DNA of 64,000 nt from an uncultured Gammaproteobacteria bacterium. GTDB taxonomy: Bacteria; Pseudomonadota; Gammaproteobacteria; CAWCPV01. Positions within the stretch are counted from its first letter, which is position 1. Every line of letters starts with the position of its first letter. A program made the position numbers and the translations under genes. Below, piece by piece: positions 14 to 42,332 of this stretch. The notes under the pieces were generated by a model. It saw only the letters and a program-made list of their open reading frames with translations, searched no databases and had not been told where the DNA came from. Location: assembly GCA_963797555.1 (NCBI GenBank), contig CAWCPV010000002.1:128001-192000 (forward strand), written 5' to 3'.

Positions 14-646
14 TTGGTCGGCTCTCGCGCCAAAGAGATGTTTCAGAACCTCATCGAGGATCTCTTCTGCGGCTATCTGATGAGCGATGGGTACCAGGTC
101 TATCGGGACTATGCCAAGCGCCTGCGTTGCTGGGCGCATCTCATTCGCAAGGCCCGGGGCCTGAGGGATTGCCTCTCGCCCACCCTCCAGGGCTACGGCC
201 AGGCGGTCTATGACCTGCTCGATGCGCTGATGCAGGCCGTCTATCACGCCCGCGAGGGACCGGGCGGCTCCCTGCGGCAAGCCCACCCGGGCGAGCTCAA
301 CGAGCTCACGGCCCTGTGTGAACGCATGAGCTGCTGCCCTTATGACAAGGCCCAGGCGCTGGGCAAGGAGCTGCTCAACGACTGGGGGGCGATCTTCCGG
401 GTGTTGGATGAGCCTCAGCTGCCGCTGACCAACAACGTGGCGGAGCGGGCGCTGCGTCACTGGGTGATTCTGCGTCGCATCAGCCAGGGGACCCGCAGCG
501 AACAAGGCAGCCGGGCGCTGGCGCTGCTCGCCAGTGTGATCGAGACTTCTCGGCTGCGATTGAGCTCCCCGCTGTGCTATCTCAGAGATGTCCTCGCCCA
601 CCGACGCCGCGGCTTTGAGGCACCGCCGCTTCCTGCGCCCGCTTGA
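14..646 (+). CDS. IS66-family transposase, C-terminal part (5' end outside window)
   Basis: Motifs LMSDGY.VY, RCWAHLIRK, PLTNNVAERALR..VI.R..S.GTRS..G typical of IS66 TnpC. Confidence 0.85.
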   Translation: MVGSRAKEMFQNLIEDLFCGYLMSDGYQVYRDYAKRLRCWAHLIRKARGLRDCLSPTLQGYGQAVYDLLDALMQAVYHAREGPGGSLRQAHPGELNELTALCERMSCCPYDKAQALGKELLNDWGAIFRVLDEPQLPLTNNVAERALRHWVILRRISQGTRSEQGSRALALLASVIETSRLRLSSPLCYLRDVLAHRRRGFEAPPLPAPA

Positions 647-648
647 GT

Positions 649-1558
649 TCAGCGCTCACCGCGCAGGCGCTCTCTGGCCTGCGGGTGCAGAGCGTAGAGG
701 AAGACCCGCTTTATCGCTCTGCCATGGCGTTGGTGCGCACGGTCCATGCGCCCGCGTCCGCTGGTCTCGCCCACCTCGCACCAGTTGGCCGCCCGGTAGC
801 AGGTCCCGGCAAAGCGGGCCGGGTCCACCAGGGTCTCCAGCAGCCAGGGACGCAGCCCATAGTGGCGCTCCCAATCCCCTACGATGCGCCGGCTGCCCAA
901 GGCCAGCACGTGGCTCGCCAGATGAGGCACTTTCACCCAGGGCAGAATCAGGAAGCGCCCCTGATTGACGATGCGTGCGAGGTGCGCTTTGCGCGCTCTC
1001 TCGTCCCAGCCGAATCCACGCATCGCGGGCCTGCATGCGCCAGGCCGGGCTGGTGTAGGTGAGCCCGCCCAACACCTCCCCCTCCCGGCGCTGGGAGCAG
1101 ATGAGATAGACCAACTGGGCCCCAAAGGGTGTGGCATAGCCCAAGTAGTGATAGCGCGCGAGAAGCTCGCGCCACAATGCCCGTCCCTCGGCCTGGCGCA
1201 CTAACTGAAGCTCCACCGGGGCCACCTCCTGCAGCGCACCGGCAATCTCGCCGCGGCGTTCGCCCCGATCGGTCTGCGCAGTGCAGGTGCGCCGCCCCTT
1301 GGGCCTGCCCGTGCGCTTGGCGGGAAGCCCCAGATCCCCCCGAGCTTCCAACCGCTCCAGTAGATCCCGACACTCGCGGGACTTCAGGGCTCCGTTGTCC
1401 CGTCTCCACCCCAGCAGCTCACAGATGGTCTGCGCCAGCTCAAAACGACTCAGGCCCACGCACATCGACACCATTCGGACGATGGCGGAGATCTCCTCTT
1501 CGGTAAAGCTCCGGCCGCTCGCCGTGATCGCCTGCGGAATAGAGGGCTCTTGATCCAT
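649..1558 (-). CDS. DUF4338 (DruA-like) protein, one frameshift near 1012
   Basis: ORFs 656-1558 and 649-1137 join into one protein (HYLGY...ARDAWI/GWD...NQGRFLILPWVKVPHLASHVL...LETLVDPARFAGTCYRAANW..VGETSGRG) if one extra base is removed. Confidence 0.8.
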
Positions 1559-1621: not shown

Positions 1622-2107
1622 TCAACTGGTGGGAGGGTCTGAACGGTTACGGCCCGGCACGATGTAGAAAAGGCCCTTGGTCTCTGGTGTGTTACATTCT
1701 TGGAGAAAGCGATGGTAGAGCAACTCCTTGGGATTTTTCCATGTGGCGTCGGGGACTTGGCCGCCTTTGGCCTCGATAATCAGAAAGGCGGCAGCGCCCT
1801 CCGTCTCGAGGACGAAGTCCGGACGAAGGCCCCAAAACTTCTTCTGGAAGAGTACCTCATCCAGACCAAAATACGCTCCCTCGTCCTTGCGGAACGCTCG
1901 CTCGTACCTCAGGGGCAGTCGCTGACTTTTCGCAACGAGTTCGGTAAGCCGATGCGGCCTTTCAGTTGGTTCGGCAGTGGGCGTATAAACCGCCGACTGC
2001 AAGAACGGGCCGGCGTCGTCCTTGGTAGCCAGGTTGAGGGACGAGGACAAGGCCCATTCAGGAAAGAGATGCGTGAATGCGTTAACGTCAGCCGTGACTT
2101 CAGACAT
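1622..2107 (-). pseudogene. Putative PD-(D/E)XK nuclease-like protein truncated by the IS66 insertion
   Basis: RPDFVL...LIIEAKGG motif; the last 8 residues derive from IS end sequence. Confidence 0.5.
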
Positions 2108-2329
2108 CGCTCTCTAGCTCCATCGTCGCTGTTCCGAGCACCAATTTTCCCCCTCGGAGCTCCCGGCGTGCCACGATGGGGAAGCATCGAAACTCCGGGG
2201 CAGGCTAAACTGTTGTCGTTCGTCCCCCTGTCAGTCTTGACCGGCATCCTTATTCTTCTGACCGCCCTCCCGGCCGTCCGACCCTATACGGGCTGAAGGA
2301 TTCCGCCGCGCCCGTCCAGAGTGGCTTGC

Positions 2330-2720
2330 CGACCGATCATCGGTCCCTTGTGCGCCGCCGAGGATGCGCAGCCCCATTGGGGGTCGTCGGCGAGCACCGT
2401 TTGAGCCCGGCGGCCCGCCGGGCGAGTTGCGCAGCCGCCCGATGGGGCGAGCACCGCAGGGAACCCGAAGGGCGGCGCACAGGGCGGCTTTCTCTTTGGT
2501 GACTTTCTCTTGGCCGCACAAGAGAAAGTCACCGGCCGCCGGGCCGCCCCCGGCAAGCCGAAGGTCCCGATGACATACGGGTCCCGCGCTCCGTCCGTAC
2601 GCCCCTCCGAACGATTCGAGTCCTGCGCCGGGCCACCCGAGGCCGGCGCGCATCGGTTGGCGCAGCGCCTGCCCAGCGCGGTAGGCGGCATTGCGGGGCT
2701 CGCTCCGAAGCCCTCGCACA
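2330..2720. repeat. Structured intergenic element with a perfect 15-bp hairpin
   Basis: GGTGACTTTCTCTTG (2498-2512) pairs with CAAGAGAAAGTCACC (2519-2533), 6-nt loop, plus GC-rich stems on both sides; no convincing ORF. Confidence 0.55.
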
Positions 2721-2775
2721 CCCCGACGCACCGGGCACTCGGGATCAGCCCGCGCGGGCAACCCGCCGCATGGCG

Positions 2776-3318
2776 TCATTCGGCGGAACCGCTATCGGGT
2801 TCGGCCCTGCGGGATGACAGCTCTGCCGAAGTCAGCACCTTGACGAAGATGACCTTCCCGTCTCCAGGTGCATAGAAGTCGCTCAGGAGGGCTTCTTGGC
2901 CGTAGCCGCAGCGCTCGTAAAAGGCGCGCGTGGAGCGATACTGCTCCCGCGCCGAGGTCTCGACGTAAACCCGTCGGCCCTGCTGTTGCGCGATTAGGGC
3001 CTCGGTGCGCCGGAGCAACTCCCGACCGATGCCCTGCCCCCGAAGCTCGGCGTCCACCACGATCCAGTACAGGTCGAAGCTCGCAGCCGTGCCGGGGATC
3101 GGCCCGTAGCAGGTGAAACCGGCCACGGCCCCGGCGCACTCCGCCAGCAGGAAATAATAGCCGCTCGCCCGTCCCCGCTGCAGGCGCTCCTCCAAGAGCT
3201 CGATCGCCACCTCTTGCTCCTGCGGGTTGAAGAATCCCGATCCCGACACCAGCCGCCGGATAGCGCCCAAATCCTCGGGCCCCACATGCTCTCGATAGAC
3301 GAGGGGGGAGCACCTCAC
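2776..3318 (-). CDS. GNAT-family N-acetyltransferase
   Basis: FDLYWIVV...RGQGIG acetyl-CoA motif, FYERCGY; GTG start at 3318 overlaps the upstream TGA. Confidence 0.85.
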   Translation of the reverse strand: MRCSPLVYREHVGPEDLGAIRRLVSGSGFFNPQEQEVAIELLEERLQRGRASGYYFLLAECAGAVAGFTCYGPIPGTAASFDLYWIVVDAELRGQGIGRELLRRTEALIAQQQGRRVYVETSAREQYRSTRAFYERCGYGQEALLSDFYAPGDGKVIFVKVLTSAELSSRRAEPDSGSAE

Positions 3319-5138
3319 GGAGCAGATCCCGACAGACCCGCCGCCTGTAGTGCCGCCGCCTCGGGGCGCCGGAGGTGTGGTTCCAATTCTCGACGCCGAG
3401 CACTCTGGGCACCGTGCCAAAGTCCTTGGAAAAACGAACGGGCGTTCACCCCCAGGGATCGGTTCTTGTAGCCTCCCTCCTGAACGACGAGGGTCGGCAG
3501 ACCGAGCCTCCCGATCATCCGCCCGTTGGCAGCAAAGTCTTTCGGTCCCAGTTCCCAGGATCCCGTCGGGTCCCCACGGGCGGTATCCAGGCCCAAGGCG
3601 ACCACCAGGAAGCGTGGGGTGAAGCGCAGGATGCGCTTCAGGACTGGTGCGAGCTCAGCGCGGTAGCGCTCGCCGTCGACGTGCTCCGGCAGGGGAACAT
3701 TCAGGTTGTAGCCCCGCCCCTTCCCCTCGCCGCGCTCGTCCGCAAAGCCGCTGAAGTAAGGGTATGCGAAATGCGGGTGGCCGTGGATGGAGACGGTCAG
3801 GACGTTGTCCCGCTCGTAAAAGATGTCCTGGGTACCGTTCCCGTGATGGTAGTCCACGTCCAGCACGGCCACCTTGCCATAGCGGCTGAGGTAGTTCGCC
3901 GCCACGGCGGTGGAGCCGAAATAGCAGAAGCCTCCGAAGGAGCGGCGTTCCGCATGGTGTCCGGGGGGTCTCACCAGCGCGTAGGCCAGCCCATAGCCTT
4001 CCAGCAGGGCATGGGTGCAGGTGAGCGCACAATCCACTGCCCCGATGGCCGCCAGATAGGCGTTGCGGTTCAGTGGCGTAAAGGTGTCGATGCAGTAATA
4101 GCCGGCGCGCAGCGGTAAGTCCTTGGGTGGGCGGGCTGCATTGCGCAGCGGAAAGACATAAGGATAGATCGAGCGGCCGGGCTGGACCACGGCGCAGGCG
4201 CGCCGCAGGTAGTCCACGAACTGCCCCTCGTGCACCGCGCGAATGTACCGGTCGGAAAAGTGCCGGGCAGGCAGCCGCCGAAACAGCCCGGTGCGCTCGA
4301 TCTCCTTCAGGATGGTCGAGATGCGCACCGGGGACTCGACGTAGCCGCGCTCCTTCACGTGGTGTATCGAATGCCCCTCGTTCACCACGAGCGCGATGGC
4401 CGCGGACCTCGGCACTGGGGCTCGCGCCTCGCCTGGCTTGGCCTTGACGTAGCGCGGAGGACGGAGGACGACCGGGTCGTCCTGGAAAGACTCCACCACC
4501 CGGTCCACATACTCCGGCGGGCAGAGACGAGCGTACTTCCCCTCCAGAATCGCACGCACGACACGCCGGGCTTCGTCCCTGGAAAGGCGCGTAACCTGCC
4601 CCAGATCGTCGTACACCAGGTACGGAGGACAATCGCCCCCCGGCCGAACTGGCGTCTCGTAAGCGGTGTGTGCAATCGGACGCGCTCCGTAGCGCTCGTA
4701 GAAACGAAGCCGCGCCGCGTTCTGCTCCAGCACGGCCCGGTCCCGGCAGAGCGCCGGGTCGTCCGGCAGGCATTCGAACACGAGCGCACGGGCACCCAGG
4801 ACGACCGCCTCCTCCCGCACGCGCTCGTAAAGGGCGCTCCCGACCCCGCCGCCTGTTCGTCCCGGCGCGGCGGAGACGAAATCGAGGAAACAGAAGTCGA
4901 GATCCGGAGCGTGCAGCAGGAGCGCGAAGCCCCGCACGCGGTCGTCCGCGTCCTCGGCCACGAACAGGATGGAGCGGAAGCGGTACTGAAAGGGATTGAA
5001 CAGTTTTTCCGGGAGTGCCGACACCTCGTCGGGGGAGAGCAGCGGGAACTGCCGACGCAGGATCTGCTGCACTTCTTCGACCGCCCGAGCGTTGGCAGGC
5101 GTGGAGGCATCGAACACGTGGCGGAGACGGAACATCAC
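3315..5138 (-). CDS. GNAT plus histone-deacetylase/acetylpolyamine amidohydrolase fusion
   Basis: N-terminal GNAT (RTGGGVGSALY, RLRFYERYGA); C-terminal Zn-deacetylase motifs RPPGHHA, GFCYF, DVDYHHGNGTQ, QEGGY. Confidence 0.9.
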   Translation of the reverse strand: MMFRLRHVFDASTPANARAVEEVQQILRRQFPLLSPDEVSALPEKLFNPFQYRFRSILFVAEDADDRVRGFALLLHAPDLDFCFLDFVSAAPGRTGGGVGSALYERVREEAVVLGARALVFECLPDDPALCRDRAVLEQNAARLRFYERYGARPIAHTAYETPVRPGGDCPPYLVYDDLGQVTRLSRDEARRVVRAILEGKYARLCPPEYVDRVVESFQDDPVVLRPPRYVKAKPGEARAPVPRSAAIALVVNEGHSIHHVKERGYVESPVRISTILKEIERTGLFRRLPARHFSDRYIRAVHEGQFVDYLRRACAVVQPGRSIYPYVFPLRNAARPPKDLPLRAGYYCIDTFTPLNRNAYLAAIGAVDCALTCTHALLEGYGLAYALVRPPGHHAERRSFGGFCYFGSTAVAANYLSRYGKVAVLDVDYHHGNGTQDIFYERDNVLTVSIHGHPHFAYPYFSGFADERGEGKGRGYNLNVPLPEHVDGERYRAELAPVLKRILRFTPRFLVVALGLDTARGDPTGSWELGPKDFAANGRMIGRLGLPTLVVQEGGYKNRSLGVNARSFFQGLWHGAQSARRRELEPHLRRPEAAALQAAGLSGSAP

Positions 5139-5153
5139 TGCTCTGCCGAGCGG

Positions 5154-6199
5154 TCACTGCGCAACCGCGACGCCACTTGAACCCACCGCGGGGCGAGGTA
5201 CGGAGCCGGCTTGACTCGGCCCCGCCAGCGCCCGCGTCGCCAACGTGGCCACCACCCGCTCCAAGGACCAGCCGGCCTCCGCCGCTGCGGCGACGAACCC
5301 GGCATCGGGTGCGAGACAGGGATTGGCGTTCACCTCCAGGACCCACGGCCTTGCGTCGACATCCACTCGAAAGTCGACCCGCGCATGCCCGTTCAGCCCG
5401 AACAGCCTCCAGCAGCGGCGGGCAAGCTCGGCGAGGCGGGCAGCGAGCGCGGGCTCGGCGCGCTCCACACCGAAGCTTCGCACCGTATGGCGGTATTCGA
5501 AGGAATCCACCTGCCACTTGGCCCGGTAGTCCACGATGCGGAGCTTGCCCGGCGGATAGTCCACGAAGCGGATCTCGGCGATGGGAAACAGCAGCGGGCC
5601 ACCATCGTCTTCGATCAGGGCGACGTTGAACTCCCGACCCTCTACGTAAGCCTCGGCGAACCATTCTCCGCCGAAAGCCGCGCCGTGATGTTCGAGGGCT
5701 GCGGCCAGACCCTCCGGGCAGCGCACGAAAGAGGCATCCGACAAACCGATGGACGCGTGCTCCCAGACCGACTTCACGATGGCCGGAACGCCCATGGCGG
5801 ACGTGTGGCCGGCGGCGCGCCCCTCGACCCAGGCCGGGGTCGGGATTCCGGCCCCCTGCATGAGACGTTTGGCGAGCAGCTTGTCCGAGGTCGAAGCCAT
5901 GGCGGTGAATCCCGCGCCGGTAAAACGCACGCCCAGAGCTTCGAGCAGAGCCGGCGCGAGGTGGATGAGCCGGCCCTGCCCGTTCACCGACTCTATCAAG
6001 TTGAAGACCAGCGCCGGGTGCAGGGCCAAGAGCCTGCTCCGGGCGGCGGCCAATCCAGCCCCAGAACGACCGGAACCGGCTCGTAGCCCAGGTTCGCCAG
6101 AGCCCCACAGACACCCTCCGCCTGCACGAGCACGTCCTGCTCGTCCGGGGGCGCCCCGGAGGGAACCTCTCCGTGGAGCACGACCACCTTGAGCCGCAC
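5154..6199 (-). CDS. ATP-grasp ligase (D-Ala-D-Ala ligase-like), 1-nt deletion near 6053
   Basis: ORFs 5996-6199 and 5154-6053 join; VFNLIES, IVKSVWEHASIG, EAYVEGREF, RVDFR, LEVNANP. Confidence 0.85.
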
Positions 6200-6207
6200 A
6201 GCGCGGG

Positions 6208-7236
6208 CTAGACTCCGGCCGCGGAGCGTCGGCGCGGGACCCCGCCGCTGGTCTGAGCCGGCAAACCGAGCCTCTGGTGGGCGCTCGTCATGATCATGGC
6301 GATCAGCTCCTGAAACTGCAGACCAGCCAGCCGGGCCAGAATCACCAGGTCGGAGCGCCGTGGGTCCAGGCCAGCCAGAGGATTGACCTCGAGAAACTGG
6401 GGTCGGCCTTCCCGGTCGGCCCGCAGGTCCACCCGTCCCCCGTCACGGCACCCCAGGCAGCGCCAGGCGGCAAGGGCCACCCCTTCCGCCTGTCGGGCCG
6501 CATCGTCCTGCACCAACCGGTAGTTGACGCGCTCCTCGTAATGCTCCTTGTTGAGGAAGGTGTAGCCCTCGGGATCCGATTCCGGGCCCAGCAGGATCTC
6601 CATCGCTCCGACGGAGCGGGCACCCGCGCCGGTCCCCACCACGCCGACCGTGAATTCCCTGCCGGGGAGAAAGCGCTCGACCAAGACGGCCTGCCTGAAC
6701 TGGGCGAGCAGACGCCGGCACGCCGGCGCGAGCTGCCCCAAGTCCTCGATGCGCGAGCCCGCGCTCACGCCCTTCCCTGTCCCCTCCGCCACCGGTTTCA
6801 CGAACAGCGGGGGCGGCAGAGCGACCGCCCCGATGTCCTCGTCGGTCTCTACGACGTGAAAGTCGGGGGTGGGCACACCGCAGTCTCGCACCACCCGTTT
6901 GGCCATGCCCTTGTGCAGGGCGAGACACAGGACCAAGGGGTCGGAAAACGTGTACGGGATGTCGTACGCTTCCAGCAGCGCCGGAACCTGCGCCTCGCGC
7001 CCCATCCCGGCAAGCCCCTCGGCGACGTTGAAGACTAGCTCCCACCGCTCACCTGCCACCAGCCTCGCGGCGAGTTGACCGATGCCGCCGATGCGCTCGG
7101 GGATGTAACCCAGGGAAGCTAGCGCTTGCTCGATGCCTTCGATGGTCTCGGGGGCGTCGAACTCGGCTGTCTGCTCGGGCGTAAACCCCTGGGCCAGGTA
7201 TGCCTCTCGCAGATCGTAAGTGATCCCCACCCTCAC
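6208..7236 (-). CDS. ATP-grasp ligase (D-Ala-D-Ala ligase-like)
   Basis: VFNVAEG, FVKPVAEGTGKGV, ERFLPGREF, RVDLR, LEVNPLAGL; GTG start overlaps the KamA stop. Confidence 0.9.
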   Translation of the reverse strand: MRVGITYDLREAYLAQGFTPEQTAEFDAPETIEGIEQALASLGYIPERIGGIGQLAARLVAGERWELVFNVAEGLAGMGREAQVPALLEAYDIPYTFSDPLVLCLALHKGMAKRVVRDCGVPTPDFHVVETDEDIGAVALPPPLFVKPVAEGTGKGVSAGSRIEDLGQLAPACRRLLAQFRQAVLVERFLPGREFTVGVVGTGAGARSVGAMEILLGPESDPEGYTFLNKEHYEERVNYRLVQDDAARQAEGVALAAWRCLGCRDGGRVDLRADREGRPQFLEVNPLAGLDPRRSDLVILARLAGLQFQELIAMIMTSAHQRLGLPAQTSGGVPRRRSAAGV

Positions 7237-8561
7237 GGCTGCGGTCCAGCGCACGTCGAGAACGCATCGGGCGATCCCAGCCGTCCGCCGGGGTCGGGAT
7301 AGCGGTACTGCTGGCCCTCGTAGTTCACCAACAGCAGGTCGTCCCCGTCGCGCCCCGCGATGTACTCGGGGATGAGCGGGATCTTCCCCCCACCACCCGG
7401 CGCATCGATGACGTAGGTAGGCACCGCGTAGCCCGTCGTGTGGCCCCGCAGGCCTCGGATGATCTCCAGGCCCTTCTCCACCGGCGTGCGGAAGTGGGCG
7501 GATCCCGAGATGGGGTCACACTGGTACAGATAGTAAGGCTTCACTCGGGCCCTGAGCAGCCCGTGCATGAGGCGGCGCATGAGCGCGACATCATCGTTGA
7601 TACCTGCCAGCAGCACGGTCTGGCTGCCGAGCGGGATACCTGCGTCCGCCAGCCTCCCGCAGGCCTGCTCCGCCTCGGGCGTCAACTCATCCGGGTGCAT
7701 GACATGGACGCTCATCCACAGCGGATGATAGCGTCGCAAGATGCGGCACAGGGCCGGGGTGATGCGTTGGGGTAGCACGAGGGGCACCTTGGTGCCGATA
7801 CGCAAGAACTCCACGTGCTTGATGGCGCGGAGGCGGCTCAGCAGCCACTCGATGCGGTCATCCGGTAGTGTGAGGGGATCGCCGCCCGACAGCAGCACGT
7901 CACGCACCGTGGGCGTGGCCTCGATATAGGCCAGGGCCGCCTCCCACTGGCGGAGGTTGAGGTGATACTCCCCCCCACCGCCGACCAGGCGAGAGCGGGT
8001 ACAGTACCGGCAGTAGGTGGCGCAAGACCCGGTCACGAGGAACAAGACCCGGTCGGGATAACGGTGGACGAGCCCAGGGACCGGGCTGTGGCGATCCTCT
8101 CCAAGGGGATCTTCTGCTTCCCCGGGCGAGCGCAGATATTCACCGTTCACGGTCACCACGGAGCGCCGCAACGCCTGCTGCGGATCCTCGGCATCCAGTA
8201 AGCTCGCGTAGTAGGGAGTGATCCCCAGGGGCAGCGGCCCCTTGTGCCGCTCGATGGCGCTGCGCTCGTCCTCCGAGACCTGAATGAGCAGTGCCAGACC
8301 TCGCAAGTCCTTGATACGGCGTCGCAACTGCCAGCGCCAATCGTTCCACTCGCGTAGCAATGCCTCCGGGTAGTAGCGCCGGCGGAAGCTCTGGGAGCGG
8401 GGACTGATGACTAGGCGGGGGACGGAAGGGCGGGGGCGAGGCTGAGACGCTGCTGGGCGGGTTCCGGCGAGCACGGGGAGATCCCGGGGCCGCCAGCGTA
8501 CCGCGCTGACGGATTCGCCGGGAGGTTCGGATTCCTCGCTGATCAGAGTAGCGTTGTCCAT
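7233..8561 (-). CDS. KamA-family radical SAM/PLP 2,3-aminomutase (lysine-type)
   Basis: HRYPDRVL, CATYCRYC radical SAM motif, SGGDPL, YLYQCD, DAPGGGGK PLP-lysine motif. Confidence 0.92.
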   Translation of the reverse strand: MDNATLISEESEPPGESVSAVRWRPRDLPVLAGTRPAASQPRPRPSVPRLVISPRSQSFRRRYYPEALLREWNDWRWQLRRRIKDLRGLALLIQVSEDERSAIERHKGPLPLGITPYYASLLDAEDPQQALRRSVVTVNGEYLRSPGEAEDPLGEDRHSPVPGLVHRYPDRVLFLVTGSCATYCRYCTRSRLVGGGGEYHLNLRQWEAALAYIEATPTVRDVLLSGGDPLTLPDDRIEWLLSRLRAIKHVEFLRIGTKVPLVLPQRITPALCRILRRYHPLWMSVHVMHPDELTPEAEQACGRLADAGIPLGSQTVLLAGINDDVALMRRLMHGLLRARVKPYYLYQCDPISGSAHFRTPVEKGLEIIRGLRGHTTGYAVPTYVIDAPGGGGKIPLIPEYIAGRDGDDLLLVNYEGQQYRYPDPGGRLGSPDAFSTCAGPQP

Positions 8562-8673
8562 GGCGGGAGTACCTGTGGGTCAAGCGAACATCACGCCGGC
8601 CACGACGCGAAGCGTCTTGCGGCCAGAGTAGCGCCCGGACGCCGAATGGCGTACCCGACTCGTGGCCTCGACA

Positions 8674-8690
8674 AGCACAGGCCATGCCAA
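8674..8690 (-). promoter_or_regulatory. Sigma54 -24/-12 promoter for the KamA operon
   Basis: Minus strand TTGGCATGGCCTGTGCT has exact GG-N10-GC spacing, about 110 bp upstream of the start codon. Confidence 0.75.
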
Positions 8691-8743
8691 CGAGCTAACT
8701 CACTAATTCAACATAATTTTTGTGCTGCAATCCCCGGTATGGT

Positions 8744-8893
8744 CGGAACTAGTAGTTCCGAGTCGGGCAGCGACGACCGTCACGCGAGGGGATGCTGACG
8801 AGGCATGGAACGGTTATTGTCCATTAAAACAACATGTTATGAACTTCGGAACTTCGAGTTCTGGCCTGCCAAGACCCAGAACTCGCGGTTCCT
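8744..8893. promoter_or_regulatory. Three palindromic enhancer-like sites (CRGAAC-N5-GTTCYK) with an IHF-like site
   Basis: CGGAACTAGTAGTTCCG 8744-8760, CGGAACTTCGAGTTCTG 8847-8863, CAGAACTCGCGGTTCCT 8877-8893; AAACAACATGTTA near 8827-8839 resembles WATCAANNNNTTR. Confidence 0.6.
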
Positions 8894-10323
8894 ATGTCGC
8901 GACCGCGGAGGAGCGAGACTTGAACTCCTCCTTGCGTAGACCGTACTTGCTCATCAGCTTGTGAAGCTGTCTGGGAGTGATACCGGCCGCGTGTGCAGTG
9001 CGGTCGATGCGCCCCTGATGCGCCGCCAGCAACTCCTTCAGATAGCGCCGCTCCAGGCTTTCGGTCCCGCTGCGGCGAACTTCGGCTAGCGTTCGGGTGA
9101 TGTCGAGCGGGAGGTGGGCCTGGCGTGCACTGTCGGCGAACAGTTCCCCAGGAAAGCTCTCGGGGGTGAGCACCGATGTCGTCTCGAGGATGTACGCTCG
9201 TTCCACCAGATTCTCCAGCTCGCGGATATTCCCGGGCCAAGGATAGGCCGCGAACGCGTCCATGACCGCGGGACTGACCGCCAGCATGCGTTTCGAGTGG
9301 AACTGGTTGAGTCTCTCCAGAAAGGCGTCGACCAACGGGGGAATGTCCTCCGTGCGCTCCCTCAAAGGCGGTATCTCGATGGGAAACACGTTGAGCCGGT
9401 AGTAGAGGTCACTCCGCAGGCTGCCCTCGGCCACCATGCGCCTCAAATCGGCATTGGTCGCCGCGATGATGCGCACGTCGGTAGCAATCACCTCTTCGCC
9501 GCCCACGCGTTGCAGCGTGCGCTCCTGAAGCACCTGCAGCAGCTTGATCTGCATCGCCGGCGAGATGGTGCCGATCTCGTCCAGGAACAGGGTCCCGCCG
9601 TGTGCGATTTCGAACTTGCCGAGCTTGCGGCGCACCGCACCGGTAAAGGCCCCCTTTTCGTGGCCGAAAAGCTCACTCTCCAGCAGACCCTCGGGGATCG
9701 CGCCGCAGTGCACGCTGATGAACTGGTGCTGAGCCCGATCGCTGTGGCGGTGGATGAGCCGGGCAAGCACCCCCTTCCCCGTCCCGGTCTCCCCCGTGAG
9801 CAGCACCGTGGTCCGGGTCTTGGCCACGGAACGGATCTTGTTGAACACCTGCTGCATGGCTGGATTGTGGGTGCGGACCAGATCGAGTGAGTCGTACTGC
9901 CAAAACGTGTCCCGTAGGTAGTCCAACTCCCATTGCAGGCGCAGCGACTCCTCGATACTCTCTTTGACGTAGCGAACCTCGTCCGGATTGACGGGATAGG
10001 TGAGGTAGTTGCTCGCCCCTGCCTTCACCGCCTTGACCCCTTCGCGCACGCGGTCCTGGGAAGTCAACACCACCACCTCCGCCCCGGGAAAGTTTTGCCA
10101 CAGCCCCTGCAGGGCGGTTCGATAGTCCCGCTGACCGTTGCCAGAGCCGCTGCCCGGCAACAGGTCGAGGTCGATGAAGACGAACTCATAGCGTCGCCCC
10201 GCCGCGGAGCCGACACCAGACTCGGGGGCGGCGACGACGTCCACGCGGTATTCGGAGCGGAAGGAGTCGCAGATGCCCGCGTGTTCAGCGGCATTGTCCG
10301 AAACGACCAGGATGGATTCTCAC
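8892..10323 (-). CDS. NtrC-type sigma54-dependent response regulator (REC-AAA+-HTH)
   Basis: GETGTGKG, ESELFGHEKGAFTGA, LFLDEIG, WPGNIRELEN, Fis-type HTH. The frame stays open upstream of 10244 (SILVVSDN) to a GTG at 10323 that is offset by one base. Confidence 0.9.
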
Positions 10324-23873: not shown

Positions 23874-25247
23874 TCAGAGCTGCTTCACCCCGTGGATCAG
23901 CTCGCCGACCATCTTCTGCCCGTCGCCGTACAGCATGCGGGTCTGGTCTGCATAGAACAGCAGGTTCTCGATGCCGGCAAAGCCCTTGCCCGCCCCGCGC
24001 TTGATAACGATCACGTTCTTCGCCTTGTCGACGTCCAGGATGGGCATCCCGTAGATGGGGCTGCTGGCATCGCTGCGCGCCGCCGGGTTGACCACGTCGT
24101 TTGCCCCGATGACCAGCGCCACGTCGGCCTGGGGGAACTCCGGGTTGATCTCTTCCAGGTCGGAGATCTTGTCGTAAGGCACGTTGGCCTCCGCCAGCAG
24201 CACGTTCATGTGCCCGGGCATACGCCCCGCCACCGGATGGATTGCGAACTTGACCGTGACCCCGTGCGCCTCCAGTACCTGAGTCAGCTCCCAAAGCTTG
24301 TGCTGAGCCTGCGCCACGGCCATGCCGTATCCGGGCACGATGATGACCTTGTTGGAATAAGCGAGCATGATGGCCGCATCGGTCGCCTCGATGGGCTTCA
24401 AGCTCCCCTCGATACCCTCGGGGGTCGCAGTCTCCTTGGCGCCGAAGCCGCTGAAGAGCACGTTCGCGAGGGAGCGGTTCATGGCCTTGGCCATCAACTG
24501 CGTGAGCAGCGTACCGGCGGCGCCCACCACGGTGCCCGCAATGATCATGGCGGCGTTGTTGAGGACAAAGCCCTCAAAGCCAACCGCAAGACCGGTGAGC
24601 GCGTTGTAAAGCGAGATGATGACGGGCATGTCGGCGCCCCCGATGGGGAGTGTCATGAGCACGCCGAACACCAAAGCCGCGGCGAAGAATACGGCCACGA
24701 CGGGGAAGCTCGTCCCCCCCGCCACGAAAGCAATGCCGAGCACGAGACACAGGGCGAAGACCACCAGGTTGAACAGATTCTGCCCACTGAACACCAGCGA
24801 CCTCTTGAGGATGCCCTGGAGCTTGGCGAAGGCGATGAGAGAGCCCGAAAAAGACACTGCTCCAATCAGTCCACCCAGCACGGCAAGCGCCATGGTCATC
24901 GTGGGAAGGGCGTGTCCCCCGACCACCTTGATCAGCTCCACCGCCCCGATGGTGCCGGCAGCACCGCCACCCATACCGTTATAGAGAGCCACCATCTGGG
25001 GCATGGCGGTCATCGGCACGCGCTTGGCGGCGACCCACGCGATGACTGAGCCGACGAACACCGCGGTGACCATGAGCACGTAGTTCTGCATGCCTGGCCA
25101 GGCAAACGTCACCAGGGTCGCGATGAGCATGCCGATTCCGGCCCAGATGATGCCTCCCACGGCCGTCACCGGAGAGCTCATACGCTTGAGCCCCATGATG
25201 AACAGGAAAGCGGCCAGGAAGTACGACGCTTGGATCAGGGTGTTCAT
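23874..25247 (-). CDS. pntB: NAD(P) transhydrogenase beta subunit
   Basis: VPGYGMAVAQAQH, HPVAGRMPGHMNVLLAE, GANDVVNP. Confidence 0.95.
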   Translation of the reverse strand: MNTLIQASYFLAAFLFIMGLKRMSSPVTAVGGIIWAGIGMLIATLVTFAWPGMQNYVLMVTAVFVGSVIAWVAAKRVPMTAMPQMVALYNGMGGGAAGTIGAVELIKVVGGHALPTMTMALAVLGGLIGAVSFSGSLIAFAKLQGILKRSLVFSGQNLFNLVVFALCLVLGIAFVAGGTSFPVVAVFFAAALVFGVLMTLPIGGADMPVIISLYNALTGLAVGFEGFVLNNAAMIIAGTVVGAAGTLLTQLMAKAMNRSLANVLFSGFGAKETATPEGIEGSLKPIEATDAAIMLAYSNKVIIVPGYGMAVAQAQHKLWELTQVLEAHGVTVKFAIHPVAGRMPGHMNVLLAEANVPYDKISDLEEINPEFPQADVALVIGANDVVNPAARSDASSPIYGMPILDVDKAKNVIVIKRGAGKGFAGIENLLFYADQTRMLYGDGQKMVGELIHGVKQL

Positions 25248-25538
25248 CTAGCGGCGCTCCTTGCTGCTCTTGAACATCTCGAGCATGCGCTCGGTCACCG
25301 CATAGCCGCCCACCGCGTTGCCGGCGCCGAGAAGGACGCCCACGAAGCCGATCACCTGCTCCGAGGTGGTTTCCGCGTGGCCCAGGGCCACCATGGCGCC
25401 GACCAGCACGATCCCGTGCACGAAGTTGGAGCCCGACATCAGTGGCGTGTGCAGGATGACCGGCACCCGCGCGATCACCTCGTAGCCGGTGAAGGCGGCA
25501 AGCATAAAGATATATAAGGCGATAAACCCTTCGATCAT
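25248..25538 (-). CDS. pntA: NAD(P) transhydrogenase alpha subunit part 2
   Basis: LHTPLMSGSN, VGGYAVTERMLEMF. Confidence 0.92.
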   Translation of the reverse strand: MIEGFIALYIFMLAAFTGYEVIARVPVILHTPLMSGSNFVHGIVLVGAMVALGHAETTSEQVIGFVGVLLGAGNAVGGYAVTERMLEMFKSSKERR

Positions 25539-26668
25539 TTGGACGCTCCTTCCACCATCTGTCGCGTCGGCTCGTGCCGTATTTGGCCGTCACGCGTGAG
25601 CGTACTGCCCCGGAGGACCTCGTCCTCCCAATCGGGGGCGAACGAGCCGTCCTTGATCATCAGCAACAGCAGGTTGTAGAGGTTCTTCGCATACAGCTCG
25701 CTCGCATGCACGCAGAGCATGCTGGGGACGTTGAGCGGCCCATAGACCGTGACTCCGTTGTGAACCAGTTGCTCGCCCGGGCGGGTCAGCTCGCAGTTGC
25801 CGCCAAATTCGGCCGCGAGGTCCACGATGACCGCACCCGGCTTCATGCGCTCCACCATGGCGGCAGTGATGATGCGCGGCGCCGGGCGCCCGGGGACGGC
25901 CGCCGTGCTGAGGACCACGTCCGCCGCTCCGATGTGCTGCGCCAGCAGTTCCTGCTGTTTCTGCTTCTCCTCATCGGTCAGCTCGCGGGCGTAGCCGCCG
26001 GTCCCTTCGGCCTTGACATCGAGCTCCACGAACTTTGCGCCGAGCGACTGGACCTCCTGCTTGGTGGCGGGACGCACGTCGTAGGCTTCGACCATCGCGC
26101 CCAGCCGCTTGGCCGTAGCGATGGCCTGCAGGCCCGCAACGCCCGCGCCGATCACCAACACCCGCGCCGGGCGGATGGTTCCCGCAGCCGTGGTGAGCAT
26201 CGGCAGGAAGCGCCCGGTCAGGCGCGCCGCCATCAGCACAGCCTCGTAGCCAGCCGCCGAGGCCTGGGAGGACAGCGCGTCCATGCCCTGCGCGCGGGAG
26301 ATGCGGGGCACCAGCTCCATCGCCAGGCTGGTAATCTTCCGGTCTCGCATGCGCGCCACGCGTTCGGGGTAGCGGTACGGAGCCATGAAGCCCACCACCA
26401 CGGCCCCTTCGCGCATCAAATCGATAGCCCGCTCGTCCGGCGGCTGGACGGTGAGCACCACATCCGCTTCCGGATAGAGGGCCTCTGGGCTCTCCACCAC
26501 CCGGGCGCCGACAAAGTCCCCGTCTTGGATGAAAGCGCCGGAGCCCGCGCCCTTTTCCACTAGCACCTCGGCACCCAATTTGGTCAGGCGCGCCACCACA
26601 TCCGGCACGCACGCGACCCGCCGCTCGCCCGGCGCAGTCTCCTTGGGCACAGCTATGCGTATCGGCAT
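25535..26668 (-). CDS. pntA: NAD(P) transhydrogenase alpha subunit part 1
   Basis: PKET..GERRVA, PRISRAQ.MD.LSSQ, GAGVAGLQA. Confidence 0.93.
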   Translation of the reverse strand: MPIRIAVPKETAPGERRVACVPDVVARLTKLGAEVLVEKGAGSGAFIQDGDFVGARVVESPEALYPEADVVLTVQPPDERAIDLMREGAVVVGFMAPYRYPERVARMRDRKITSLAMELVPRISRAQGMDALSSQASAAGYEAVLMAARLTGRFLPMLTTAAGTIRPARVLVIGAGVAGLQAIATAKRLGAMVEAYDVRPATKQEVQSLGAKFVELDVKAEGTGGYARELTDEEKQKQQELLAQHIGAADVVLSTAAVPGRPAPRIITAAMVERMKPGAVIVDLAAEFGGNCELTRPGEQLVHNGVTVYGPLNVPSMLCVHASELYAKNLYNLLLLMIKDGSFAPDWEDEVLRGSTLTRDGQIRHEPTRQMVEGASK

Positions 26669-27505
26669 CTTTCTATCTCCCAACATGCGGGGCGGTTGTG
26701 CGCGAACCTTCCGGACACGAGACAGCGCCGCGTGGAACCGGCAGCGGGCTGCGAGGCGACCCGCGCCCGAAACACCGGACACCTCAGACCGCCGCGTGAA
26801 AGAAGATAGCTCGGCGGCAAGAGCAGAAAGGCGGCGGCACGCCGCCGTCGGAAAAGTGGAATGGCCCGCCCACGCCCGAGCGGCCCCGTCCGTTCGGAGG
26901 GGTGGAAGTTCTTCGACCGCCCCTAGAGCGACAAAGGCCGACGCCCTCATCGCCCCGCCCATCCCGTCCCGCAGCAGAGCCGCGCGCCGACAGGGCTTCG
27001 ACGCGCCACTTTATATCACCCTGGGGGCGCAGCCAGCAACCTCGGGCCGAGGCAGCTTCGGTGCGTGGCGTCCAGAGGCACCCGCCCGACACCCGTCATG
27101 GCCCCCTCCGCGTCCGCAGCGCAGTCCTACACCCTGCTGCCCGGTCGTGAAGCTTCGGAAAAGGACCCGGCGACTGCGACCCACGGCCCCGTGGGCCGCA
27201 GCCCCCAATGGCGGAGCACGCCTCGGGTGACGGGGTCTCGCGTTACCGGAACCAGCTCTCGATGGCGATCACACGGCGCGGTGCCGCACGCCGCGGGCCG
27301 TATGTGCCCTCACTCTACGTCGAAGCTGAGGGCACACGGCTCAAGCCACACCCTTGACAGTCCTCGTCATCGCATACAGCGAGTGCACGCAATCCTGGGC
27401 CAGGGATGCCGAGCCATGCCGCCCGCCCCGGCGGGATTCCCGTTTCCCAGCCGTGATGACGGTCGGGACCAAGAGTTGTGTGTGATGGCATGCGTTTGGG
27501 CGTGT

Positions 27506-30031: not shown

Positions 30032-30583
30032 ATGCAGATCGTTGAAGGCTGGGTCCGGGAGGCCGCGCGCCGGCCGTCGCCCAATCGCGATGCCCGCCCG
30101 TTAGGCGCGGTTATCGACCTCCTCGTGGTGCACGGCATCAGTCTCCCGCCCGGGGAGTATGGCGGGCCGTGGATCGACGCCTTGTTCACGAATTCCCTGG
30201 ATGCGGAAGCTCATCCGTATTTTCGCGGGATCGCGGGTCTTAGGGTTTCGGCTCACACCCTAATTCGGCGCGGCGGCGACATCGTCCAATACGTCCCGTT
30301 CCACTTGCGCGCCTGGCACGCGGGGGAATCCTGCTTTGCCGGCAGGCCCGGCTGCAACGACTACAGCATCGGCTTGGAGCTAGAGGGTACCGACCTGGAG
30401 CCATACACCGACGGGCAGTACACGCAGCTCGCAGAGCTGGCACGTGCCCTGCGGAGGATCTATCCCGCCATCACACGCGATCGCATCGTAGGCCATAGCG
30501 ATATCGCACCGGGGCGCAAGACCGACCCTGGCCCGGCCTTCGTGTGGGGCAGGCTGTGGGCGCTGCTGGGCGAGCCGCCGTGA
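30032..30583 (+). CDS. ampD: 1,6-anhydro-N-acetylmuramyl-L-alanine amidase
   Basis: SPN.D.RP, HGISLPPG, VSAH, RAWHAG, GHSDIAPGRKTDPG. Confidence 0.95.
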   Translation: MQIVEGWVREAARRPSPNRDARPLGAVIDLLVVHGISLPPGEYGGPWIDALFTNSLDAEAHPYFRGIAGLRVSAHTLIRRGGDIVQYVPFHLRAWHAGESCFAGRPGCNDYSIGLELEGTDLEPYTDGQYTQLAELARALRRIYPAITRDRIVGHSDIAPGRKTDPGPAFVWGRLWALLGEPP

Positions 30584-31473
30584 CGCTGTTGGCGATCATC
30601 CTGGCGCTGGCGGGTCAAGAGTTGCTGGGCGACCTCCATGAGCATCGCAGCTTCGCCGCCTACCAGCGGTGGGTTCAGAATCTGCACAGGCGTTTTCGCT
30701 CCTGGCCCTGGGACGGCCCGCTCGGCGTCGGCCTGGCCCTGTTCCTGCCCGCGTTCCTGGTCGCTGTCCTCCACGGACTGTTGGCGAGGCTGTTCCCGCC
30801 GCTAGCCATCGTGTTCGACGCCTTTGTCTTGCTATACTGCTTCGGCCCTAGGAGTCTCGTCGATGATCTGCAGCATTTCTCCGAGCTGCGGACGCGCCAG
30901 GACGACGACGGTGCCCGACGCCTGGCAACGGAGCTTGGTGGCCTGCCGGGGGAGTCGCACGGTGACACGGCTCAGTCAGTCCTGCGGCAGATCCCGGTAC
31001 AGGGCAATCGCCGGGTGCTGGCCGTGCTGTTTTGGTTCGGTCTGTTAGGCCCGCTGGTCGGCCCTTTCGCCGTCGTGCTCTATCGGCTGACGGAGCGCGC
31101 CTGCGACGCGCTGCAGGTACCAAGCGCCGAGGACGTGGATTTCGCCGGCTCCGCATTGCGCCTCTACGCACTTCTCGATTGGCTGCCGGCGCGCGCCGCG
31201 GCGCTGACCTACGCCCTGGCCGGAAACTACCGGGGGGTGCGTACGCGACTTGCCAAGCGACCCGATCTGTGGTCGCGTATCAGCTTGGTCGGAAACGCTG
31301 AGCTGTTGGCGGCGGCTGGCGAGGGGGCCCTGGGACAAGGATATCCGGCGGCGCCCGTGAACGCCGGGATGTTCCAGCAGCAAGTCGATGAGGCTTTGGG
31401 TTTGGTGCGCCGGACGATGTGGGTATGGGTCGCGCTGGTCGTCACCGCAACCCTGGGCCACTTGCTCGTGTAG
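30580..31473 (+). CDS. ampE: AmpE/CobD-like membrane protein
   Basis: Coupled to ampD; TM helices, AVLFWF...GP, LDWLPAR. Confidence 0.7.
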   Translation: MTLLAIILALAGQELLGDLHEHRSFAAYQRWVQNLHRRFRSWPWDGPLGVGLALFLPAFLVAVLHGLLARLFPPLAIVFDAFVLLYCFGPRSLVDDLQHFSELRTRQDDDGARRLATELGGLPGESHGDTAQSVLRQIPVQGNRRVLAVLFWFGLLGPLVGPFAVVLYRLTERACDALQVPSAEDVDFAGSALRLYALLDWLPARAAALTYALAGNYRGVRTRLAKRPDLWSRISLVGNAELLAAAGEGALGQGYPAAPVNAGMFQQQVDEALGLVRRTMWVWVALVVTATLGHLLV

Positions 31474-36352: not shown

Positions 36353-37384
36353 ATGATGGAAGATAACAAGAGCAAGGCATTGACCGCCGCCCTGAGCCAG
36401 ATCGAAAGGAGCTTCGGAAAAGGGGCGGTCATGCGTATGGGTGACGCCGGGGTGGCTCGGGACGTGGATGTCATTTCGACGGGCTCCCTGGGGCTGGATA
36501 TCGCGCTGGGAGTTGGCGGTCTGCCGCGCGGACGTGTGGTGGAGATTTACGGGCCAGAATCCTCGGGCAAGACGACACTCACTCTGCACGTGATCGCGGA
36601 GGCCCAGCGACAGGGCGGAACGGCGGCATTCATCGATGCCGAGCACGCGCTCGACCCGACGTACGCCCAGAAACTGGGGGTCAACGTGGACGATCTGCTC
36701 GTGTCGCAGCCGGACACCGGCGAGCAGGCGCTGGAGATCGCGGACATGTTGGTGCGCTCGGGTGCCGTGGACGTCGTGGTCATCGACTCGGTGGCCGCCC
36801 TGACGCCGAAGGCCGAGATCGAGGGCGAGATGGGCGACTCCCACATGGGTCTCCAGGCGCGTCTCATGTCCCAGGCGCTACGCAAGCTTACGGCGAACAT
36901 CAAGCGGTCCAATACGCTGGTGATCTTCATCAACCAGATTCGCATGAAGATCGGCGTCATGTTCGGGAACCCCGAAACGACCACCGGCGGTAATGCACTG
37001 AAGTTCTATGCCTCCGTGCGCCTGGACATCCGCCGTACCGGGGCCATCAAGAAGGGCGATGAAGTCATCGGGAGCGAGACGCGGGTCAAGGTGGTGAAGA
37101 ACAAGCTTGCCCCGCCCTTCAAGCAGGCGGAGTTCGAGATCCTCTACCGGGAGGGAATCTCGCGCCAGGGAGAGATCGTCGATCTGGGCGTGCAGCACGG
37201 TGTCCTGGAAAAGGCTGGGGCGTGGTACAGCTATCGCGGTAACCGCATCGGTCAGGGCAAGGAGAACGCGCGCGATTTCTTGCGCGAAAACCCCGACGTG
37301 GCCCGCGAGATCGAGGAGCAACTGCGCGCTAGCCTATTGCCTGCCAAGCACGCCGAGTCTCAGGCCGCGGAGGTCGAGTCCTGA
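36353..37384 (+). CDS. recA: Recombinase A
   Basis: [31 protein letters not shown]. Confidence 0.98.
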
Positions 37385-37434
37385 GGACCACGGCCGAGTC
37401 CCCCGGCAACGTCGAGCGCGTCGCCCTGGGCCTG

Positions 37435-37839: not shown

Positions 37840-37847
37840 CTCGAGGT

Positions 37848-40451
<2,604 letters not shown>

Positions 40452-42276: not shown

Positions 42277-42332
42277 GACGGCGGAGCCTAGGTCGGCAGG
42301 CGCCAGTGCCCTGGCGAACCGTCCATCCAAAC

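Follow-up and report, generated by a model that had tools for sequence, protein, structure and literature searches.

The window analyzed here is a 64,000-nt stretch (positions 128,001-192,000 of contig CAWCPV010000002.1, assembly GCA_963797555.1; coordinates are relative to the window unless a locus or another genome is named). It carries a minus-strand cassette for a KamA-family aminomutase, two ATP-grasp ligases resembling D-alanine-D-alanine ligase (Ddl) and called AG1 and AG2 here, a fusion of a GNAT acetyltransferase domain with a deacetylase, and a small GNAT N-acetyltransferase, GNAT2 (Table 1). This cassette most likely converts lysine to β-lysine, joins it to other small molecules and then acetylates the result. 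All the enzymes come from known superfamilies, and their product is probably new.

The genes are packed closely. The TGA of KamA overlaps the GTG start of AG1 (GTGA), and the stop of the fusion overlaps the start of GNAT2 in the same way; AG2 begins with GTG (6199) 8 nt after the AG1 stop, and 15 nt lie between the AG2 stop at 5154 and the start of the fusion. The initial annotation had described five tightly coupled genes, which holds for the shared strand, the boundaries and the overlaps, although one of the five, AG2, proved to be split by a one-base frameshift. Because the arrangement recurs in unrelated phyla, it is far beyond chance.

This recurrence was determined in a genome scan with one genome per species, which returned at least 599 matching stretches. 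The best 80 were taken with up to 10 kb of flank (numbered with the prefix L) and compared with the window proteins by tblastn, and the counts below are restricted to loci with enough flank. In 69 of 74 assessable loci, AG1 was preceded by KamA on the same strand, and this adjacency makes AG1 the partner most tightly tied to KamA. AG2 followed AG1 in 64 of 69 loci, GNAT2 was present in 52 of 59, and all four genes occurred in the order KamA, AG1, AG2, GNAT2 in 46 of 56 fully assessable loci representing at least eight phyla. These frequencies bear out the idea, on which the initial annotation depended, that the genes are conserved together. The GNAT-deacetylase fusion is less frequent (14 of 59 assessable loci; 18 of the 80 anywhere in the locus) and is placed after AG2 and before GNAT2; two Bacteroidales loci, where it precedes AG1, are the exception. 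Shorter versions also exist: three loci have KamA and AG1 only (L035, L037, L056), three have KamA, AG1 and AG2 without GNAT2 (L020, L044, L050), and KamA was not seen in the flank taken from five (L016, L038, L076, L077, L078).

According to the record titles, the carriers belong to Thermodesulfobacteriota (Syntrophales, Desulfobacterales, Desulfatiglans, Desulfobulbales), Bacteroidota/Ignavibacteriales, Spirochaetota, Planctomycetota, Alpha- and Gammaproteobacteria, Fusobacteriota (Ilyobacter), WOR-3, Neomarinimicrobiota and one Patescibacteria bin. Close relatives of AG1 number at least 8000, as all 8000 scored candidates passed, with 59-82% identity among the top 120 matches listed. The best explanation is a self-contained operon, common to many anaerobic bacteria, that has spread horizontally and would yield a small amide derived from β-lysine.

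In the two Bacteroidales loci with the fusion ahead of AG1 (L038, 8203-11960; L078, 257-4587), KamA was not found. The upstream flank of L038 extends over 10 kb, and that of L078 covers about 2 kb upstream of AG1 and about 250 nt upstream of the fusion; since this second flank is short, the KamA gene of L078 could sit just outside the stretch. The ligases of both loci may receive their substrate from elsewhere.

Clustering of all open reading frames (ORFs) in the loci gave no other recurrent partner, and the remaining families, present in at most nine loci, reflect lineage synteny (for instance, Pit/PhoU-like proteins, Fpg and acetyl-CoA synthetase). As no other biosynthetic gene is linked, lysine appears to be the sole dedicated input. 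Similarly, a search for a conserved small ORF within 700 nt on either side of the cluster, covering 81 loci (the 80 and the window), yielded a best family of six loci from one lineage. Microviridin/graspetide clusters combine two ATP-grasp ligases with a GNAT and thus resemble the cassette in their inventory of enzyme types; unlike them, the cassette has Ddl-like ligases and a KamA. A cluster for such a peptide, made on the ribosome and modified after translation (RiPP), was considered and rejected, given that no conserved precursor peptide was found within the 700 nt.

Gene fusions provide a second kind of linkage. In 4 of 42 loci, one ORF encodes both AG2 and GNAT2, and in 7 of 16, one ORF encodes the GNAT-deacetylase and GNAT2. 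For instance, a 751-aa protein encoded on the chromosome of the complete Desulfosarcina variabilis genome (L063, 12022-14277) consists of a GNAT domain, an amidohydrolase and GNAT2, a triple fusion that is also found in six more Desulfobacterales-like loci. By the Rosetta-stone argument, the ligase, the acetylase and the deacetylase are therefore tied to one process.

Regarding the first enzyme, the window KamA matches the solved Clostridium lysine 2,3-aminomutase 2A5H (E = 3.1e-126), and D293, D330 and K337 of that structure have their counterparts in its YQCD and DAPGGGGK motifs (numbering counted from the alignment). We take the two aspartates to bind the ε-ammonium group of the substrate and K337 to be the lysine that holds pyridoxal phosphate (PLP). 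Each of the 71 cluster KamAs retains the CxxxCxxC motif and the equivalents of these three residues, which bears out the earlier view that both lysine-binding aspartates are present and fits a basic substrate. An extension of low conservation makes up the first ~55 residues. The protein exceeds the cut-off of the KamA family model TIGR00238 (357.4 vs 199.2 bits); among the specific models it scores best against the AblA equivalog TIGR03820, below its cut-off (471.5 vs 525.4), followed by those for Glu-2,3-aminomutase (403.8 vs 650), Arg-2,3-aminomutase (384.9 vs 600) and EpmB (248.4 vs 369.3). From the conserved residues we infer that KamA is of the lysine type and would convert L-lysine to β-lysine. 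In two alphaproteobacterial loci (L037, 5053-9993; L050, 5115-9995), a pair of genes for PMT_2 (ArnT/PMT-like) membrane glycosyltransferases lies directly upstream of KamA, whose ORF there measures 555-558 aa from its apparent start; KamA is followed by AG1 alone in L037 and by AG1 and AG2, with no GNAT2, in L050.

Both ligases share 25-31% identity with E. coli DdlB and about 22-31% with each other (tblastn). When four AG1 and five AG2 sequences are aligned with DdlB, its residues K97, K144, E180, E187, K215, R255, D257, E270 and N272, which we take to be the catalytic and nucleotide-binding residues of ATP-grasp enzymes, are invariant in AG1 and AG2, and the equivalent of E15 appears kept if the alignment is moved by one residue. 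The positions that presumably form the D-Ala subsites are changed: S150 is replaced by T in AG1 and A in AG2, Y216 by W in AG2 and by a gap or another residue in AG1, and S281-L282 by S-D in AG1, with an invariant Asp, and by A-G in AG2. Both ligases have the motif FN(I/L)xE(G/S) where Ddl has HG..GEDG. Scores against the best Ddl model, with a cut-off of 243 bits, are 135.6 for AG1, 110.1 for the C-terminal piece of AG2, 113.8 for its closest intact relative (P0122), and 153.8 and 87.9 for AG1 and AG2 of D. variabilis. AG1 was modelled with a predicted local distance difference test score (pLDDT) of 87.4; the folds closest to this model all belong to Ddl enzymes, at template modelling (TM) scores of 0.62-0.80.

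Judged by these sequence features, AG1 and AG2 lie outside the D-Ala-D-Ala ligase family proper. They share the fold, as modelled for AG1, and the ATP-binding and catalytic residues with DdlA, DdlB and VanA, whereas they fall below every curated cut-off, differ in the D-Ala subsites and stand beside KamA rather than mur or fts genes. Since fold and ATP-binding and catalytic residues are the same, Ddl-like chemistry is expected: each enzyme should use ATP to form an acyl-phosphate and then join two small amino-acid-like substrates by an amide bond.

The window copy of AG2 is interrupted by the one-base frameshift at about 6051-6056 (GLD/LAAAR). The N-terminal piece (residues 1 to about 49, VRLKVVVLHGE...GLD) occupies the frame from 6199 to about 6054, and the C-terminal piece (LAAARSRLLALHPALVFNL..., LAAARSRLL...) continues in another frame at 6053-5154; the protein database lists the gene product as a truncated protein of 291 aa (P0121). 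In P0122, the closest intact relative (333 aa, 85% identical), the stretch ...GLDLAAARGRL... is uninterrupted. Because both pieces have coding-like composition (GC content at third codon positions 0.85 and 0.82) and high identity to P0122 (81% and 84%, the proteins of the closest relatives being 82-87% identical), the lesion is either very recent or an assembly error. Apart from the IS3 transposase with its usual two frames, the 55 further ORFs of the window that were scanned showed no similar split. Hence one of two situations applies: the pathway of this organism stops after AG1, as in the natural loci that have KamA and AG1 only, or the assembly is wrong at this point. If the frameshift is real, the organism makes at most the AG1 product.

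GNAT2 matches the structure 2R7H, entitled Dde_3044 of Desulfovibrio desulfuricans in the PDB, with E = 3.1e-38 over 153 aligned residues. Putative acetyl-CoA loops, LRGQGIG and GRTGGGVG, are present in GNAT2 and the N-terminal domain of the fusion; they presumably correspond to the R/Q-x-x-G-x-G/A loop of GNAT enzymes. The best curated family for GNAT2 is RimI, at 40 bits vs a cut-off of 86.4. Against the AblB model TIGR03827 (cut-off 205.1), GNAT2 reaches 10.9 bits and the N-terminal domain of the fusion gives no match. Acetylation by GNAT2 is likely the last step.

These results bear on the simplest alternative, in which the cassette would carry out ordinary N-ε-acetyl-β-lysine synthesis and the Ddl-like genes would be neighbouring cell-wall D-Ala-D-Ala ligases. 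KamA plus a GNAT is indeed the minimal known route to that compound, and the source annotations name both ligases D-alanine-D-alanine ligase. However, ligase scores of 110-154 bits vs 243, the linkage of ligase and KamA across phyla, the fusion of AG2 to GNAT2 in four loci and a GNAT2 that is not AblB leave this explanation close to refuted and hardly credible. As the initial annotation had anticipated, the ligases are not plain D-Ala-D-Ala ligases and the genes exceed the two-gene AblA/AblB route. The logic of the cassette still resembles AblA/AblB, the N-ε-acetyl-β-lysine pathway of methanogens and some bacteria: a KamA-type aminomutase acts before GNAT acetylation, and fitness data link the genes to salt stress in the one organism that has such data, Desulfovibrio alaskensis G20. 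It differs from AblA/AblB in the two ligases between these steps, in a GNAT2 unrelated to AblB, in a KamA below the AblA cut-off, in the optional amidohydrolase fusion and in its predicted σ54 control.

The cassette also resembles the synthesis of N-acetylglutaminylglutamine amide (NAGGN), an N-acetylated peptide osmolyte made by Ngg, which combines a GNAT with an ATP-grasp enzyme, and by AsnO. Compared by description only, both systems pair ATP-grasp with GNAT enzymes, and four cassette loci have a GNAT-ligase fusion; unlike those of NAGGN synthesis, the cassette ligases are Ddl-like and the building block would be β-lysine.

The D. alaskensis G20 operon provides the physiological evidence. 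Gene order was taken from Kuehl et al. 2014 (PMC4045070, Data Set S2), where Dde_3040-3044 are consecutive on the plus strand and Dde_3045 lies on the other strand. They comprise a σ54-specific two-component regulator (Dde_3040, start 3030732), the KamA gene (Dde_3041), two D-Ala-D-Ala ligase-like genes (Dde_3042 and Dde_3043, starts 3033768 and 3034819) and a GCN5-like acetyltransferase (Dde_3044, start 3035859), and all five are classed there as dispensable. This operon is the window architecture minus the deacetylase fusion. Dde_3039 and Dde_3047 were set aside as unrelated genes.

Strain-level fitness values of transposon mutants were obtained from Price et al. 2014 (PMC4215793, Data Sheet 2), with the column order from the gene-level sheet. 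In two experiments at 800 mM NaCl, the acetyltransferase mutants (Dde_3044; two strains, three tag rows) had values of -0.58, -0.77 and -0.97 in the first and -1.00, -1.63 and -1.29 in the second. The non-GNAT rows of the operon that were mapped fell between -0.50 and +0.12: the KamA gene Dde_3041 (-0.19, 0.09, -0.10; then -0.35, -0.05, -0.13), the AG1 gene Dde_3042 (-0.27, 0.12; then -0.14, -0.02), the AG2 gene Dde_3043 (-0.07, 0.01, -0.12, -0.39; then -0.03, -0.13, 0.10, -0.50) and, in one of its two rows, the regulator Dde_3040 (0.11; then -0.10). Across its 82 experiments, Dde_3044 has its minima in 800 mM NaCl; other stresses gave about -0.7 to -1.0 at pH 6.0 and -0.37 to -1.09 with 200 µM H2O2. 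The same source (sections 2.1 and 4.2) describes gene fitness beyond ±1 as highly reproducible. This GNAT-only defect fits a toxic AG2 product that is neutralized by GNAT2, and it points to higher flux through the operon in salt and to damage by the free-amine intermediate.

Some alternatives give the acetylation a different meaning. Streptothricin-class antibiotics carry β-lysine chains, and resistance to them consists of N-acetylation. This precedent, together with the resemblance of the acetylase-only phenotype in the G20 data sheet to self-protection, would suit a secreted or stored cationic antibiotic-like compound that, while acetylated, does no harm within the cell and is activated by deacetylation. 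We nevertheless regard such a compound as very improbable: genes for transport, resistance or regulation of the kind typical of antibiotic clusters do not recur in these loci, the deacetylase has no export signal as far as tested, and an occurrence in hundreds of species at 55-65% identity is unlike that of a specialized metabolite.

Alternatively, β-lysine or a β-lysyl peptide could be placed onto a protein, peptidoglycan or the envelope, by analogy with the β-lysylation of elongation factor P (EF-P) or with RimK tailing. As in the EpmA/EpmB system that modifies EF-P, a KamA-family aminomutase would supply β-lysine for an ATP-dependent ligation; the cross-phylum conservation is very high (53-63% for AG1, about 66% for the fusion), no exporter is linked, the curated family nearest to GNAT2 is RimI, although far below its cut-off, and the PMT_2 gene pair precedes KamA in L037 and L050. 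Nevertheless, the KamA score is far short of the EpmB cut-off, the ligases are of the ATP-grasp type and not LysRS-like, no efp gene or other target gene is co-conserved, no conserved small ORF was found within the 700 nt searched, the nearest folds of AG1 are all small-molecule enzymes, and the five G20 genes are all dispensable by the classification in Data Set S2. Modification of a macromolecule is therefore improbable.

The GNAT-deacetylase fusion is relevant to the foremost rival. Its N-terminal GNAT-fold domain (residues ~1-230; model pLDDT 83.9; nearest folds GCN5, PCAF and AAC(6')) precedes a deacetylase domain (~267-573), whose best PDB matches are the acetylpolyamine amidohydrolases 9GKZ, 6PHR and 3Q9B (E 2e-69 to 5e-59 for residues 267-573), with 3MEN as a further member of this group. 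Residues H393, H394, D426, D428, H430, D517 and Y556 are invariant in 26 sequences, and we assume that they represent the zinc and catalytic motif (HH, DxDxH, a later D, GGY) of class II histone deacetylases and acetylpolyamine amidohydrolases. Unlike these relatives, the cassette deacetylase is fused to a GNAT-fold domain, as conserved as the rest of the protein (full-length relatives are about 66% identical across phyla), and in seven loci also to GNAT2. A predicted complex of the fusion with GNAT2 (score 0.16, mark 0.32) has no bearing on binding either way. A possible role of the fusion's own GNAT domain is acetylation of a second amine. Because the fusion occurs in 14 of 59 loci and is missing from the G20 operon, it is an accessory part, and the built-in acetylation on/off cycle of the initial annotation has to be reduced to an optional add-on.

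The polyamine amidohydrolase relationship is among the points that favour the main rival, which retains the proposed chemistry but has as its product, in place of an osmolyte, a polyamine-like cation (oligo-β-lysine or a β-lysyl-polyamine) that would bind nucleic acids or membranes and whose charge homeostasis would depend on acetylation and deacetylation. Lysine as the sole dedicated input, the harm caused by loss of the acetylase alone in the G20 sheet, and the invariant Asp of AG1 beside the Ser aligned with DdlB S281, compatible with a basic nucleophile, would all agree with it. Conversely, none of the linked genes serves polyamine biosynthesis or transport, the amidohydrolase is missing from 45 of 59 loci, and a substrate call from one aligned residue is weak. 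Although it is the strongest of the rivals, we consider it unlikely.

We thus return to the preferred reading, a stress-linked pathway to an N-acetylated β-lysine peptide or conjugate in which acetylation neutralizes a harmful cationic intermediate, a scheme we regard as having an even chance of being correct. In this pathway, KamA would convert L-lysine to β-lysine. AG1 and then AG2, judging by family chemistry and gene linkage, would each form one amide bond through an acyl-phosphate, giving a cationic intermediate that may be di- or tripeptide-like or an oligo-β-lysine. GNAT2 would N-acetylate the AG2 product and thereby remove one positive charge. Where it is present, the GNAT-amidohydrolase fusion would strip an N-acetyl group from an alkyl-amine and may put one back, with deacetylation as a way to remobilize, recycle or re-charge the compound. 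The unacetylated intermediate would be harmful on accumulation, most of all in high salt, whereas loss of the whole pathway or of its early steps would cost nothing under the conditions tested in G20. The physiological role is most likely stress protection, for which salt and acid are the best current leads. That the end product is itself an osmoprotectant is somewhat less likely than not; we rate this below the overall scheme because the KamA and ligase mutants of G20 tolerate 800 mM NaCl and because many carriers live in freshwater.

Several observations weigh against this reading. The self-protected cation or osmolyte of the initial annotation gains support from the GNAT-only defect in high salt, but the product, like the co-substrates of AG1 and AG2, is putative. 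The co-conservation counts were made on the best 80 loci out of at least 599 with a match, and the AG2 gene of the window itself is disrupted. Freshwater syntrophs such as Smithella and Syntrophus, atypical hosts for an osmolyte pathway, account for many of the carriers. Dde_3044 alone is linked to the window by sequence, through 2R7H, and Dde_3040-3043 are linked by annotation, order and spacing. Data Set S3 of PMC4045070 lists no high-confidence transcription start at 3032000-3032499, between Dde_3040 and Dde_3041, during standard growth. In the fitness sheet of PMC4215793, the Dde_3044 phenotype is moderate, with one of the two NaCl experiments beyond ±1, and the KamA, AG1 and AG2 mutants are not salt-sensitive; since these mutants are unaffected, cells do not need the product to grow in that medium at 800 mM NaCl. 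A separate role of Dde_3044 could also account for the GNAT phenotype.

Upstream of KamA, the window encodes a σ54-dependent activator (enhancer-binding protein) with an atypical receiver-like N-terminus, an AAA+ σ54 interaction domain and a Fis-type helix-turn-helix (HTH). Its listed start is GTG; the frame is open upstream to 10319 with ATC (10313) or CTG (10310) as the only possible starts, and a conserved N-terminal strand, ESILVVSDNAAEHAGICDSFRSEYR, is encoded in frame at 10245-10319 on the minus strand, directly after the stop codon of the neighbouring gene. In its relatives, the receiver-like domain is without the usual acidic pair and has Tyr in place of the conserved Lys, residues that we take to be canonical for receivers. 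Relatives with at least 50% identity occur in 14 of the 80 loci, in 12 of them upstream of KamA on the same strand; the exceptions lie downstream of the cluster (L009) or upstream on the opposite strand (L063).

A candidate σ54 promoter, TGGCATGGCCTGTGCT, lies about 115-130 nt upstream of the KamA ATG and scores 10 against what we take to be the -24/-12 consensus. Sites with a score of at least 10 were found in 14 of 70 KamA upstream regions vs 2.2% of 645 random 600-nt segments from the same loci. A scan of 2000-9200 gave no σ70-like sites and two terminator-like sites vs 3.7 expected, and an Rfam scan of the window returned two tRNAs only, with no riboswitch or other Rfam element upstream of KamA. 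Going by these sequence patterns, the best explanation is that a dedicated σ54 activator would control the cassette in part of the family, including the window.

A literature search by enzyme and pathway names and by Dde locus tags found no description of this gene set or of its product. The passages of a review (PMC9811515) on lysine 2,3-aminomutase concern nonribosomal peptide synthetase products only, and those of PMC3543383 cover the canonical ablA/ablB pair, the pathway being cited there for Pelobacter carbinolicus with Pfluger et al. 2003. The D. vulgaris σ54 regulome paper (PMC4641369) does not mention an aminomutase, alanine ligase, ATP-grasp enzyme or GNAT, lysine, β-lysine or D-alanine, or Dde_3040.

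The remainder of the window is summarized in Table 1. Directly downstream of the cluster, the DNA has the appearance of decayed mobile or defence DNA. The membrane protein gene upstream of the activator, whose product resembles an ion-channel type with a coiled-coil tail, was not found beside the cluster in the other loci. We take the order recA, recX, alaS to be typical of Gammaproteobacteria; an oligopeptidase A gene is also present in the window. Together with ampD-ampE and pntAB, these genes hint that the host is probably a GC-rich gammaproteobacterium. Downstream of two tRNA genes lies a mobile and defence island that includes an anti-phage operon of the CBASS type (cyclic-oligonucleotide-based anti-phage signalling system).

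Table 1. Features of the window, listed with the cassette and its putative regulatory elements first; a blank cell means that no entry was recorded.
Feature	Position (nt)	Strand	Profile match or remark
KamA-family radical SAM/PLP aminomutase, predicted L-lysine 2,3-aminomutase	7233-8561	minus	Pfam Radical_SAM + LAM_C
AG1, Ddl-like ATP-grasp ligase 1	6208-7236	minus	Pfam Dala_Dala_lig_C, 73.8 bits
AG2, Ddl-like ATP-grasp ligase 2	5154-6199	minus	Pfam Dala_Dala_lig_C; frameshifted
GNAT-deacetylase fusion	3315-5138	minus	Pfam Acetyltransf_1, 29.5 bits; Hist_deacetyl, 247.9 bits (cut-off 27.9)
GNAT2, small N-acetyltransferase	2776-3318	minus	Pfam GNAT models, 49.6-50.4 bits
Candidate σ54 (-24/-12) promoter	8674-8689	minus	
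σ54-dependent activator	8892-10244	minus	Pfam Sigma54_activat, 236.7 bits; AAA_lid_14; HTH_8
Membrane protein, 349 aa	10320-11369	minus	no Pfam/NCBIfam match
Apparently decayed mobile/defence DNA	14-1558		directly downstream of cluster
IS66-family transposase fragment	14-646		profile positions 113-283 only
ORF	656-1558		partial DruA (Druantia) match
pntAB	23874-26962		
ampD-ampE	30032-31473		
recA, recX, alaS	36353-40451	plus	
Mobile/defence island	42184-63957		downstream of the tRNA genes
tRNA-Ser(GCT) + tRNA-Arg(ACG)	42184-42409		
ParE/ParD	43238-43827		island
Fic + HTH	43916-44982		island
DDE_3 transposase	45747-46778		island
HTH-Peptidase_M78	48566-49717		island
CBASS-type anti-phage operon	50049-54298	plus	
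AAA ATPase	50049-50921	plus	CBASS operon
Unassigned ORF	50918-51385	plus	CBASS operon
Bacterial HORMA_2	51382-51885	plus	CBASS operon
SMODS nucleotidyltransferase	51882-52766	plus	CBASS operon
SAVED-domain effector	52727-54298	plus	CBASS operon
ISL3 transposase	54824-55936		island
DUF4062-AAA-TPR protein	56009-58780		island
IS3-type integrase pieces	60070-61192		island
NACHT NTPase	61644-63365		island
HicB-like antitoxin	63646-63957		island

In bacteria and archaea, β-lysine serves as an acetylated osmolyte, as a modification of EF-P and as an antibiotic building block. The cassette may add to these a chemically new class of N-acetylated β-lysine peptides or short oligo-β-lysines, assembled by two Ddl-derived ligases, that would serve anaerobes from many phyla as a stress protectant or polyamine surrogate, a reading we put forward tentatively, at somewhat less than an even chance. 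Here, a dedicated GNAT would attach the acetyl group as a charge switch and, in a quarter of the carriers, the fused GNAT-amidohydrolase would take it off; the free form would be toxic to its producer. If true, this would be a fourth use of β-lysine, extending over hundreds of species, and a new small-molecule family in anaerobe physiology; it would also give the Ddl branch of the ATP-grasp ligases a new activity and provide a natural acetylase/deacetylase fusion of defined purpose. D. alaskensis G20 is a genetically tractable sulfate reducer that offers the operon, archived transposon mutants in every gene, the solved acetyltransferase structure 2R7H and a phenotype at 800 mM NaCl.

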